Shown here piece by piece: positions 29,341-34,605 of a stretch of 64,000 nt of DNA (within the stretch, counting starts at the first letter, position 1; the number at the start of each line of letters is the position of its first letter). The notes below the pieces were generated by a model. It saw only the letters and a program-made list of their open reading frames with translations, was not told the DNA's origin and did no database searches. This stretch comes from an uncultured delta proteobacterium (lineage in GTDB: Bacteria; Desulfobacterota; DSM-4660; Desulfatiglandales; HGW-15): assembly GCA_963702565.1 (NCBI GenBank), contig CAVPDE010000026.1:25235-89234 (forward strand). The letters run 5' to 3'. Both the position numbers and the translations under genes were made by a program.

Positions 29341-30423
29341 GGGACGTTCTTGATATATTGCTATTCTAGCCATTCTCCCCTTATCTCCTCGCGTTCCAGT
29401 ATCGCTGGCGCACGGGCTATTGACCTGCTTACGGCAGAAGGACTGATTCCGAGCTCCGTCGCAAGCGATACAGAGGTCATCCCTATTTTACGCACGCCCA
29501 AGTAGCACAGAACCGCACGGGCTTTGGCTATGGCAGGAACCTTGCTTGCGGATTGAAGAGATTCTGGGTCTATACCGAAATGCGCGGAGACTTTTTCTGA
29601 CAGCCATTTTAGGTTCATTCCCTTTTTCCTGAGGAGGGACCTCTTCTCCCATTCCTCCTCTGACTCCCTCAAAACGCGCTCAACAAAATCGGATCCTCCC
29701 AAAATCCGCTCGTCGGCCCTTACAGCCTCTCCCGATTTGTGCAGTTCATCCAGCCCCTTCCACCCTCCCACAGAGCGCAGCAATCCTCCGCCCGCTAATT
29801 CCGGCCGTCGCCCCTGCGCGACCCCCTCCGAAACATAGGATACATAAGCCGACCTGGCCTCCTTCTCCGTGTGTCCGAAATATCGTAGAACGTAATCTCT
29901 ATCCTGCCAGTTTCTCTTCTTCCTACCCATGAGCACGGAATGCCCTGAGTAAGCATAGAAGCCAAGCTCCCTGAGATCATGCACTAGTCCAGCCCGAAGG
30001 GGATTCAGATGGATATAGCGCACAAGCTCCCGTAGGTAGGCATCTTCCTCGCAAAGGATAGACTTGTAACGGTTTTGAAAGAGATGCCCGTGACGAGAAT
30101 AACGCCGGTTAAAGGTCACGGCATAGCCGGTCAGGAGCTTTCTCATGACGCGGGCAATGGGAATTCTTCCTGTTCGGAGAAGAAAATGAGCATGATTGGT
30201 AAGCAAAGACCATGCGTAGCAAGGGGTCGAGCTTGCCATCAGGATTCCGCCAAGTCGATCAAGAAAGGACTCGCGATCTTCATCGTTTCGAAAAATCGCT
30301 GTCCGGTCGATCCCTCGGATCATCACATGGTGGAGTGCCCCAGGCGCGTCTAATCGTGATTGACGTGGCATTCGGTTCTCCTAGCGCAACGAAAACAGAA
30401 TGTCAACATATCAAGAACGTCCC
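29341..30423 (-). mobile_element. inverted-repeat-flanked Y1 HUH transposase unit
   Basis: IR GGGACGTTCTTGATATATTGCTATTCT (29341-29367) vs reverse complement of 30397-30423, 24/27 identical; third copy 30503-30530. Confidence 0.75.
29361..30371 (-). CDS. RAYT/TnpA-REP-like Y1 HUH transposase with C-terminal HTH (DnaA_C-like)
   Basis: MPR..R.D.PG..HHV..RG, NHAHFL (HUH), GHLFQNRYKS, YIHLNPLRAG (catalytic Tyr), C-terminal LGIS.SAVSR. Confidence 0.9.
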   Translation of the reverse strand: MPRQSRLDAPGALHHVMIRGIDRTAIFRNDEDRESFLDRLGGILMASSTPCYAWSLLTNHAHFLLRTGRIPIARVMRKLLTGYAVTFNRRYSRHGHLFQNRYKSILCEEDAYLRELVRYIHLNPLRAGLVHDLRELGFYAYSGHSVLMGRKKRNWQDRDYVLRYFGHTEKEARSAYVSYVSEGVAQGRRPELAGGGLLRSVGGWKGLDELHKSGEAVRADERILGGSDFVERVLRESEEEWEKRSLLRKKGMNLKWLSEKVSAHFGIDPESLQSASKVPAIAKARAVLCYLGVRKIGMTSVSLATELGISPSAVSRSIARAPAILEREEIRGEWLE

Positions 30424-31635: not shown

Positions 31636-32244
31636 CTATTTGATGAGAAGGTTATCAAGTGGCAGCCTTTTTCTGGGTTCAGGAGACTCTGCCGGATAGC
31701 CTATTGGCAGTAAGGCGACAACGAAAATATTTTCATCCCAGCCAAATAAGCTCCTTATCATGTCAGCATTAATTAATCTTATCCAGCAGGTGCCCAAACC
31801 GAAGTCCAAGGCTCTCAAGACTATGTGCTCGATAGCTATGGCAACATTTGCGGCAATTTGAGGCCCTATTTGATCAAGAGTATAAGACCTCGCTTGTTCT
31901 ACTCTTTTGACAAGGATCTTTACAATCTTGTCCTCGACCGCCTTTATTTTCCCAAGGTCCTGTGCACCGGAAGCAGATCCATCGAGATAGCCTTTGATGT
32001 CCGCACAGCAGACAGTCACGACAGGTGCCTCAGCGATGAATATCTGATCATAAGCTGCTAGTGCCAGTTGGAGTTTTGTTTCCGCTTGTTTTATAACTTT
32101 AAAACGCCATGGTTGAGCATTGCATCCTGACGGTGCCAGCCTTGCAGACTCCAGCAATTCTTTAATACATTCATCAGGAACTGGATCAGGCTTGAATCTA
32201 CGGATGCTCCGTCTGTTTTTTATTGCATCTTTCGTTGTTAACAT
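31636..32244 (-). CDS. nitroreductase family protein (gene cassette)
   Basis: RRSIRRF, ARLAPSG.NAQPW.F, GLGTCWI, LPIGYPAE...PR.R; AT-rich; bounded by attC sites. Confidence 0.92.
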   Translation of the reverse strand: MLTTKDAIKNRRSIRRFKPDPVPDECIKELLESARLAPSGCNAQPWRFKVIKQAETKLQLALAAYDQIFIAEAPVVTVCCADIKGYLDGSASGAQDLGKIKAVEDKIVKILVKRVEQARSYTLDQIGPQIAANVAIAIEHIVLRALDFGLGTCWIRLINADMIRSLFGWDENIFVVALLPIGYPAESPEPRKRLPLDNLLIK

Positions 32245-32285
32245 ATTGCCTTATCCTATCGACCTGCCTTGTCTGTTTTATCCGG

Positions 32286-32348
32286 GGCTAACAGGGGCGT
32301 CACCCGGAGCCGGCAGTTTCGGCGATCGGGTGCACGCGATCGTTGGGC
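32286..32348 (-). mobile_element. attC: integron attC site
   Basis: Minus strand GCCCAAC GATC GCGT(G)CACCCG ...GCCG-loop-CGGC.. CGGGTGACGC CCCT GTTAGCC; 63 bp. Confidence 0.9.
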
Positions 32349-33094
32349 AATTCATGATCGTGTTCTTTCAAGGTCCGAAAAGCCACGGCGGCTTTCAGAA
32401 AAGCGAGGACAATTGGATGAGGGTTGCCCGGCTTTGAGGACAGCTGAGGAAGAAAAAGGGTTGCCACAAAGAAAGGATGGGAAGTAAGCTCAACAATTCT
32501 TGCGTTTCCGTCACTGTCCTTGCCAACAACACGAAGAGCACCCTGCATGATGTCGTTCCGATACGTTTCGTTGAGCCCGTAGTTGCAGGTGAATTGCTCA
32601 GTGGCTCGGTTCTTTCCATATGCCTCGAAGGCTAAGGTGCCAGGTGTAACCAAAACCTCTTGTTCGACACCGGCAAGGGAGCACACGAGACGGCTTATGA
32701 CGAGAGCGGGAGAAGCGGGCGCGGTCTCCTCAAAATCAGCATCTCGTATGCCCGCAACATTTCGCGCATACTCTACCAGAGCATGCTGAAAGCCGCTTCA
32801 GGTTCCCAGGAACGGCCACCTTCGTTCCCTGGTAAACCGGATTGCTTCCAACGCGCCGTTCATGCTCCTGTATGGACCCCCGGGAGCACAGAAGATGCCG
32901 TCATACTCCTCCAACTTGCCGTGGTCCGCCGCAGTCTCCAATGCCTGTGTAGGAATCCAATCGGCGCTGACCGCAGCCGTTACTCTCTCTGCCGCGTGAC
33001 GCAAAGCCTCGTTCGTAGCCTTGTGTGACGGGCGCTCAGCCTCAAAGTCCCCCACAATTGCGATTCTTACGTCAGCGGTCATTCTGTCCTTCAT
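32300..33094 (-). CDS. CTP-synthase-like class I glutamine amidotransferase, probable selenoprotein (Sec99), 264 aa
   Basis: ORFs 32798-33094 and 32300-32686 are in frame, separated by one TGA (32798-32800) and 37 sense codons; reads PFLGT-U-SGFQHALVEYARNV where CTP synthases have PFLGxCxGxQ; also IAIVGD, DGI..PG, CNYGLN, ELTSHPFFVATLF. Confidence 0.8.
32754..32797 (-). promoter_or_regulatory. bacterial SECIS-like element
   Basis: UGA + 11 nt + GCAUGCUCU-GGU-AGAGUAUGC (9-bp stem, G-first loop); lower stem GCGGC/GUUGC and UUUC/GAAA. Confidence 0.75.
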
Positions 33095-33099
33095 TTTTT

Positions 33100-33118
33100 T
33101 CCCAACAAGTGATTAAGT
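33100..33118 (-). mobile_element. attI-like integron recombination site (no adjacent intI)
   Basis: ACTTAAT-CACTT-GTTGGGA (L box, 5-bp spacer, core); core complements the first cassette's inverse core GCCCAAC at 6/7. Confidence 0.6.
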
Positions 33119-33724
33119 GGTTTCCGGTCATCTCCAAGGAATGTCGCCGACTTGCGAAATAGAACTGACACAAGGGCTTAGTTTTGCTCGATCAGGTAGT
33201 CGGTTAACACCCCAAATGGAATGAATACACCCTTTCCGGGTATCACCACCTGCTCACTTGTCGGCGGAACACTCTTCAATACGCTTTGGAGATGGGTGAC
33301 TTTAATCGAGAGATAGGTTTTGGCTGGCTATTTTGGTTAGGCTGATAAATTGACCAAATACTCATCCAGCAAGAGAATGCTGAGTTAGGGAAAAACCCCG
33401 CTGGTCGGGCTCTGGTTTTGGGTATAATAGAGGGAAGTCAGCGGGAAATCAAGAGAATTCACCGCAGAGGCGCCGAGGCCGCAGAGAAATGCAAGGTGTA
33501 CCTCTGCTCATGCCTGCGGAAGACAACCCCCGCAGTATCACGACCTGGCTTTTCCTTGACCCGCAATGCGAGATGCCCTATAGTCCGAGCCCGAAATGGG
33601 CAGCCCTATCACCCAGGATCTTCCTCATCATTCAATCCCATTTTCTGTTCGAGTGGACAGTTTCGGGGCGTGAACCAGCGCCCAGGGGAATATCGGCGGA
33701 GAAGGCGGGGTGGGGAGAACAACG

Positions 33725-34605
33725 ATGAAAGCTTCTCAGGTAATCAAGAACGGTATTGCAGCGCTGCCGCAGATCCTCTGGAACCTTACGCTGATCGCGT
33801 TGGGCAGCGTTCTTTGTGCGGTCGCCCTCAACGGAATCCTCATTCCCCGTCAATTTCTTGAGCGGCGGTTTCACCGGCCTGGCTCTCATCATCCACTATC
33901 TTGTTCCCGCATTTCCCCTCGGTGCCATCTACCTCCTTCTTAATATCCCCAACTATGCCTTTGGATGGAAATATGTGGGACGACGATTTTTCCTCTACAG
34001 CATCGCTGGCATGTTCATTTTCTCAGCCGCCATTGAGGCTGATTCACATTACCCTTCCGGTCTACGATTATCTGCTCAGCGCGCTGCTGGCAGGAGTCAT
34101 CGTGGGGACCGGCTCTGGCCTTATCCTGAAGTCTCTTGGATCCGCAGGCGGTACGGACATCCTTTCCGTCATCCTTCTCAAGCTCTTCTCTATTCGCCTT
34201 GGCACCACGATCCTCGCATTCAACGGGATCATTCTGGCAGCGGCCGCCGTCCTCTTCAGTCTCGAGATGGCTCTTTACACGCTTATCTATCTCTACATCA
34301 GCTCCTACATGCTTAATCTGGTGGTCACGGGATTGAACCAGCGTAAAGCCGTCTATATTATCTCGCCGCAATGGAAAGAAATCTCGCAGGAAATTATGAA
34401 AGAACTTCAGAGAGGCGTGACCATCCTCAAAGGGGAGGGAGGATACACAGGCAAAGAACAGCCTGTCCTGTACACGGTCATCACCTTCCGCGAACTGAGC
34501 CGGCTCAAAGGCTTGATCCGTCGGATGGATCCGGATGCCTTTGTCGTGGTCAGTGAAACCCTGGAGGTGATGGGTCATCGCATCGGCAACCAGCCCCACT
34601 GGTAG
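33725..34605 (+). pseudogene. YitT family membrane protein with two +1 frameshifts (or assembly errors)
   Basis: Three overlapping frames join to ...LIPRQF/SGGFTGLA...NIP.../GSAGGTDI...RGVT.L.G.GGYT...D.DAFV; shifts near 33858 and 34038. Confidence 0.8.

Follow-up and report, generated by a model that had tools for sequence, protein, structure and literature searches.

The window, the whole 64,000-nt stretch of DNA that was analyzed, contains a real selenoprotein gene, an added member of a known, uncharacterized family, in which UGA is almost certainly decoded as selenocysteine at residue 99, as judged from comparison with related sequences. The gene is a 264-codon frame on the minus strand, broken by a single internal TGA at codon 99; the peptide around the stop reads PFLGT-stop-SGFQHALVEYARNV, which gives GT-U-SG at the motif. 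Translation table 11 splits the gene into two ORFs (32798..33094 and 32300..32686). The plus-strand reading contained several stops and no gene, and was rejected. The coordinates of the features are given in Table 1.

Table 1. Features of the selenoprotein gene; positions are those of the window.
Feature	Position	Strand	Basis
Coding sequence, member of NF004836, with predicted Sec at 99	32300..33094	(-)	frame, 329.9 bits, model with pLDDT 96
Possible alternative start, ATG	33082	(-)	
In-frame TGA, codon 99, at the column of Cys379 of E. coli CTP synthase	32798..32800	(-)	alignment
Bacterial SECIS, upper stem with GGU loop at +12..+32 from the UGA; relatives conserve 8 pairs	32766..32786	(-)	fold, relatives
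Entire predicted SECIS hairpin with lower stem (lower stem a prediction only)	32754..32797	(-)	fold
Cys138, second conserved cysteine, in the LxCSL loop	32681..32683	(-)	homologue counts
Cys170, third conserved cysteine, at the column of His469 of E. coli CTP synthase	32585..32587	(-)	homologue counts, alignment
Leu215-Pro-Gln217, where the His-Pro-Glu of the triad would sit	32444..32452	(-)	alignment
Gln103, column of Gln383, retained amino-acid-binding residue	32786..32788	(-)	homologue counts; role presumed
Glu123, column of Glu403, retained amino-acid-binding residue	32726..32728	(-)	homologue counts; role presumed
His24, a His specific to the family, at the column of Tyr305; candidate for the replacement base	33023..33025	(-)	homologue counts

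Contigs of two runs from different studies spanned codon 99, and no other letter was listed there; the best spanning match may come from the window's own sample. Since the contigs of both runs agree at this codon, an assembly error is an unlikely source of the TGA. The named relatives closest to the gene were found in a Desulfobacteraceae assembly (86%) and a Thermodesulfobacteriota assembly (70%), and the protein had 85% identity with that of locus L006 in both halves. RNA datasets containing the gene were absent among the matches listed. In contigs from a strain of about 99% similarity, the Sec gene is present, but the flanks differ beyond positions 32335 and 33100; thus, the neighborhood of the gene is not fixed. 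Scanning of positions 32100-33600 for promoters and terminators revealed, on the minus strand, a single weak promoter-like site (33452-33424) and no terminator. A nitroreductase-family gene (31636-32244, minus strand) lies next in the same direction, 55 nt past the stop of the Sec gene, and the scan placed no terminator-like site in the gap. The window also encodes an IS200-like (Y1) transposase with a C-terminal DnaA-type helix-turn-helix (29361-30371, minus strand) and a YitT-family membrane protein (33816-34605, plus strand), which is matched by its Pfam profile from position 86 and seems to be split over two frames, possibly by a frameshift.

The protein matched the NF004836 (PRK06186) profile over positions 1-227 of 228 with a score of 329.9 bits against the curated cut-off of 260. 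Both PyrG cut-offs were failed (150.3 bits against 308 and 148.9 bits against 462.75), and a separate pyrG gene was present in the host genome. The product is a stand-alone GAT-like domain with the GxUxG/GxCxG motif and no synthetase domain. The NF004836 selenoprotein family is not new: in the available part of their paper, Xiao and Zhang (2025, PMC12013277) predicted a "glutamine amidotransferase (COG0504)" selenoprotein that has a SECIS and homologues with either TGA or Cys, and a 2026 review, in its accessible portion, lists a selenoprotein with the motif GxUxG under NF004836 (PMC13188914). Our literature search, with most subscription journals outside its coverage, found no paper assigning a function to this family.

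The host genome (97.8% complete) contained tRNA-Sec as well as selA, selB, and two selD genes, all of the latter over their cut-offs. Both selD genes carry an in-frame TGA followed by a hairpin (G000:C16:19729-20655 and G000:C20:91888-92808), and ARAGORN reported a tRNA with an undetermined four-base anticodon in the same genome (G000:C18:402568-402663). Ten other genomes whose TGA copy of the family gene is intact or almost so were tested, and all have selB. Column 99 was occupied by Cys in 112 of 120 protein homologues, the others having Trp (6), Leu (1), or Arg (1); the Trp residues presumably represent TGA called under another code. A TGA-requiring pattern scan of metagenomes returned 120 stretches of an estimated 1000, and 118 of these 120 encode relatives with the same TGA, mostly with about 35-60% protein identity to the window's protein. 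Frame breaks were present in at least 6 of these 118 copies and in 3 TGA copies from genomes. Pattern-free HMM searches found the family in 2/401 genomes of the phylum, in 3/21 genomes of one order, and in 9/209 genomes of the class (6 TGA, 2 Cys, and 1 broken copy). One TGA copy (L158, G466:C100) kept an intact hairpin but was broken by a premature TAG and by a frameshift immediately ahead of the TGA. Genome G466 gave no selB match, yet selA and a TGA-containing selD were present; the absence of selB is therefore probably an assembly gap, and the idea that this host had lost Sec and kept a broken copy was rejected.

In a quick tree of a 44-row subsample of 191 (hand-picked and random rows), built with the Sec and SECIS columns masked and giving no direction of change, Sec and Cys forms interleaved with 8 changes, at least 5 of them forced by well-supported branches. 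A single Sec clade was rejected (p-AU 3e-6). Sec forms with the second of the two hairpin types described below adjoined enterobacterial and streptomycete Cys forms.

The TGA is followed, after a spacer of 11 nt, by a hairpin with a 9-bp stem, a GGU loop, and an extended lower stem, which SelB would read in order to insert Sec99. Folding of a 51-nt segment gave -21.4 kcal/mol (z -3.2; 2 of 200 shuffles equally good); the signal faded with segment length to z -2.2 at 61 nt and z -0.8 at 101 nt, and at 81 nt another structure won over the hairpin. The bacterial SECIS model, as given in the available part of PMC13188914, has a loop of 3-9 nt, an upper stem of 4-16 bp, G in the first two loop positions, a spacing of 16-37 nt, and an MFE of at most -7.5; the hairpin agrees with these limits, having a 3-nt GGU loop, a 9-bp stem, 20 nt from UGA to the loop, and -21.4 kcal/mol.

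Two hairpin types were found among TGA genes, type 1 in 82 loci, including the window's gene, and type 2 in 40 loci. In type 1, codon 108 was GAG in 82/82 and codon 109 was TAT in 79/79 genes, and none of 89 positions outside codons 100-111 reached 90% of one codon; these counts come from a scan whose pattern predetermined part of the 5' arm and from groups defined on codon 106. A check free of pattern bias was provided by 8 HMM-found TGA genes and 10 Cys genes: 8/8 stem pairs and a G-first loop occurred in all 8 of the former, and the complete stem occurred in none of the latter, which had 2-6 pairs each. Eight of the nine stem pairs of the window's gene were conserved in relatives, the outermost pair being kept in 5 of 73 unique sequences. 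We failed to find strong covariation in the SECIS: most of the stem did not vary, and the changes at +16/+28 and +20/+24 were one-sided, so support from covariation is slight. A single two-sided pair change was found in the type 2 hairpin, in 2 loci (L051, L126). This second type, in another register, was observed in GC-rich genomes (L012, L023, L037, L065, L069, L076, L078, L083), where the loci adjoin a branched-chain amino-acid ABC transporter and a luciferase-like monooxygenase.

These results bear on an earlier note, made from the letters of this DNA. Its account of one 264-codon frame broken by a single TGA, given with no strand, was correct, and the 9-bp GGU-loop hairpin on an extended lower stem 11 nt after the TGA was reproduced by folding. 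The TGA base call and the sel genes on which its selenocysteine reading depended also held. It had looked to Cys/TGA alternation with covarying hairpins; the alternation was evident from the TGA stretches and the Cys homologues (118/120 and 112/120, respectively), and strong covariation was not.

Class I amidotransferases have a Cys-His-Glu catalytic triad with a His-Pro-Glu motif. The predicted model of the window's protein, the alignment, and the structure matches together point to a GAT fold with a nucleophile elbow and an oxyanion hole; CTP synthase GAT domains were among the top matches of the structure search, with TM values of 0.87-0.93. Alignment to E. coli CTP synthase placed Sec99, Gly72, Gln103, and Glu123 at the columns of Cys379, Gly352, Gln383, and Glu403, and Cys170, Leu215, Gln217, and His24 at those of His469, His515, Glu517, and Tyr305, respectively. 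Gln383 and Glu403 are, we assume, the glutamine-binding residues of CTP synthase. Cys379 is described as the nucleophile, Gly352 as lying at the oxyanion hole, and Arg468/Arg470 with the 428-438 loop as forming the GTP site in the accessible text of PMC9138612.

The Cys-His-Glu triad was not found in the window's protein, which has Leu-Pro-Gln in place of the His-Pro-Glu motif. The triad His column contained His in 0/120 homologues, in 0/104 further homologues (after removal of two non-family rows), in 0/73 TGA genes covering the column, and in 1/135 representatives (50% identity level; 15 proteins of 300 aa or more excluded); Glu at column 217 was kept in 44 of the 135 representatives. Two other cysteines were nearly invariant in the same three protein sets: Cys138 (117/120, 104/104, and 120/135) and Cys170 (120/120, 103/104, and 132/135), all three cysteines occurring together in 118/135 representatives. 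The LxCSL loop with Cys138 stands where CTP synthase has the longer GTP-activation loop. Gln103 was conserved in 120/120 homologues and 132/135 representatives, and Glu123 in 116/120 homologues and 125/135 representatives (Glu in 119 and Asp in 6). His24 was present in 117/120 homologues and 112/135 representatives, and His121, which is Phe in the window's protein, in 112/120 homologues.

Because the catalytic histidine is missing, the labels "CTP synthase" and "glutamine amidotransferase" are probably wrong for the NF004836 family, and the loss of this residue together with the two near-invariant extra cysteines argues against ordinary glutaminase chemistry. The placement of Sec at the nucleophile column of a CTP-synthase-like GAT fold, proposed in the earlier note, is supported by the alignment with Cys379, by the Cys of 112/120 homologues, and by TM values up to 0.93, and its remark that the family may already be labeled as containing selenoproteins agrees with the NF004836 entry and the COG0504 prediction in the parts of PMC13188914 and PMC12013277 cited above. 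Its preference for a hydrolase over a redox enzyme is open to doubt, as the triad His is replaced family-wide and the two further cysteines are nearly invariant.

A pocket for glutamine's amino-acid end, the lack of a general base for hydrolysis, the repeated swapping of Cys and Sec, and the two additional cysteines fit a selenol/thiol relay. From such sequence features, the favored reading, at about even odds, is redox chemistry of some kind, with the protein acting as a selenol/dithiol oxidoreductase on a small molecule shaped like glutamine and not as a glutaminase. The pocket would bind the amino-acid end of the substrate, Sec99 would attack the oxidized side-chain atom, and Cys170/Cys138 would resolve the oxidized Sec, and thioredoxin would recycle the relay, as it does for the three-cysteine MsrA. 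The leading candidate substrate, albeit an unlikely one, is free methionine sulfoxide, a molecule similar in shape to glutamine. Three-cysteine MsrA uses such a relay, and Sec raises Msr activity, according to the available part of PMC6316033; MddA/YncA acetylates oxidized methionine derivatives, according to that of PMC12402492. The full scenario is speculative and improbable as a whole: a GAT domain would have split from CTP synthase and been turned into a Sec/Cys reductase of a new class, acting on free methionine sulfoxide or on a related oxide shaped like glutamine, with a three-residue selenol/thiol relay, many Cys/Sec exchanges, and two different SECIS hairpins.

The methionine sulfoxide idea was formed when one MsrA neighbor (L046) was known; 138 neighbor ORFs were then scanned (134 of 169 picked, and 4 added). 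The MsrA gene of L046 (3255-3900, minus strand) lies 1.5 kb downstream of the Sec gene and itself carries an in-frame TGA where the catalytic residue is encoded; it is likely a second selenoprotein there. MsrB was encoded beside the Sec gene of L043, and a stand-alone GAF protein without an NCBIfam match, which we take from its motifs to be of the fRMsr type, directly after L060. Two peroxiredoxin-family genes neighbored L025, and a gene of a Cys/Met PLP enzyme preceded L072. Around 11 further genome loci, none of 81 ORFs was an Msr gene, so the Msr linkage failed replication, and the three Msr neighbors give the methionine sulfoxide idea weak support; a thioredoxin gene was found directly downstream at L148 in this set. 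Over the 372 kb flanking all 139 loci, 3 Msr genes were counted where the host's density predicts 0.22, with P ~0.002 for all three, one of which (L046 MsrA) prompted the idea, and ~0.02 for the two found after it, the loci not being independent.

Fusions to Msr or thioredoxin were absent from 19 long representatives, 5 of which had GNAT fusions of mixed type, most of them from other subfamilies. In P0014 and P0122, the family domain was fused to PAT/ArsN1/YncA-like acetyltransferase domains scoring below cut-off, and a gene of an ArsN1/PAT-like acetyltransferase precedes L084 (ArsN1, 182.7 bits on a partial gene, cut-off 210). Other fusions were to methyltransferase (P0251), kinase and methyltransferase (P0280), ankyrin (P0258), GyrI-like (P0340), and chorismate mutase (P0348) domains; some of these may be assembly or read-through artifacts. 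Fused forms of at least 465 aa were not found at E 1e-45 in one search, a weak test, and two such proteins appeared in a later listing.

No conserved operon was found, the sole recurring neighborhood being synteny among about 8-10 related GC-rich loci with the branched-chain amino-acid ABC transporter. A pyrG partnership was also rejected: pyrG adjoined 1 of 121 loci, most of them short, and the family gene there was a frameshifted TGA copy between pyrG and a kdsA-like gene (L031:4061-6540). In L039, L055, and L086, the type 2 Sec gene lay between or beside genes of hydantoinase/oxoprolinase A and B subunits on the same strand. The actinobacterial Cys copies L134:2561-3430 and L137:2543-3433 were accompanied by a divergent ORF, LysR-regulator-like by eye.

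His24 could replace the lost triad base, counter to the redox reading. A non-canonical amide hydrolase of this kind, acting on a gamma-glutamyl or glutamine-like substrate with Sec99 forming the acyl-enzyme, would amend the hydrolase reading of the earlier note and is possible, if rather doubtful. The CTP synthase GAT fold with its nucleophile elbow, the retained Gln103, Glu123, and Gly72, and the conservation of His24 and His121 are in its favor, as are the oxoprolinase subunits flanking three loci and the peptidase C26 gene following L061; however, it leaves the two near-invariant extra cysteines unexplained, residue 121 is Phe in the window's own protein, and no conserved partner synthase lies nearby, with pyrG beside the single locus mentioned above among mostly short ones.

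The three Cys/Sec residues, shared by 118/135 representatives, would alternatively form a metal or metalloid site (Zn, Fe-S, or As(III)), for example, for arsinothricin-type organoarsenicals or metal sensing. This is quite improbable: the ArsN1-like acetyltransferase adjoining in L084 and fused in P0014 and P0122 is consistent with it, but 219 scanned neighbor ORFs contained no recurring ars operon gene and one ArsR-family HTH, located at the broken copy L158.

Glutamine-mimicking electrophiles of the DON or acivicin type bind to CTP synthase GAT domains in solved structures, as the entry titles indicate, and the family might be a covalent sink or detoxifier for such compounds, the pocket binding them and Sec/Cys being alkylated with no need for His. 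We regard this as very improbable: the patchy spread (9/209 genomes in the class) and the GNAT fusions (5/19 long representatives) accord with it, but one-shot use of Sec would be costly, and the extra cysteines are unexplained. A nonsense mutation (pseudogene) or an assembly error is hardly credible, since, although some TGA copies elsewhere are broken, the same TGA occurs with a frozen hairpin in 118 relatives, mostly of ~35-60% identity, the Sec machinery is intact, independent contigs agree, and both halves are equally similar to L006.

The locus itself is ordinary, a further example of a catalogued selenoprotein family annotated in two pieces; the useful part is the family-level anatomy. 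Three conserved Cys/Sec residues with a retained amino-acid pocket offer a cheap and direct assay for a widespread family, and the selenol/dithiol reductase reading, if true, would mean that the class I amidotransferase fold had switched from hydrolase to oxidoreductase.

Among known systems, the DJ-1/PfpI superfamily combines a class I GAT-like fold with a reactive Cys that works without the His-Glu pair, a possible parallel to the window's protein. DJ-1 gave no match in Pfam or among the listed Foldseek matches, and an ESM Atlas search with the relative P0002 as a query returned nothing beyond the same family. The likeness to MsrA, MsrB, and fRMsr/MsrC is a functional analogy only: these enzymes have a catalytic Cys/Sec and up to two recycling cysteines in the available part of PMC6316033, whereas the fold and sequence of the window's protein are unrelated to theirs, with no PMSR, SelR, or GAF match in its profile and structure searches. 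The GAT domain of PyrG, a class I GAT, shares with the window's protein the fold (TM up to 0.93), the nucleophile elbow, and the Gly352, Gln383, and Glu403 columns. In contrast to PyrG, the window's protein is without the synthetase domain, has Sec at Cys379 and Cys at His469, and scores below both PyrG cut-offs; the family has lost His515 and mostly lost Glu517, and Arg468 and Arg470 of the GTP site are replaced. There is no family-level difference from NF004836: the window's copy differs from most members in Ser100 and Phe121 (Gly and His, respectively, in most) and in a longer C-terminal tail, and shares with them the full-length match over the cut-off, the GxUxG motif, the stand-alone form, and the alternation of Sec and Cys.
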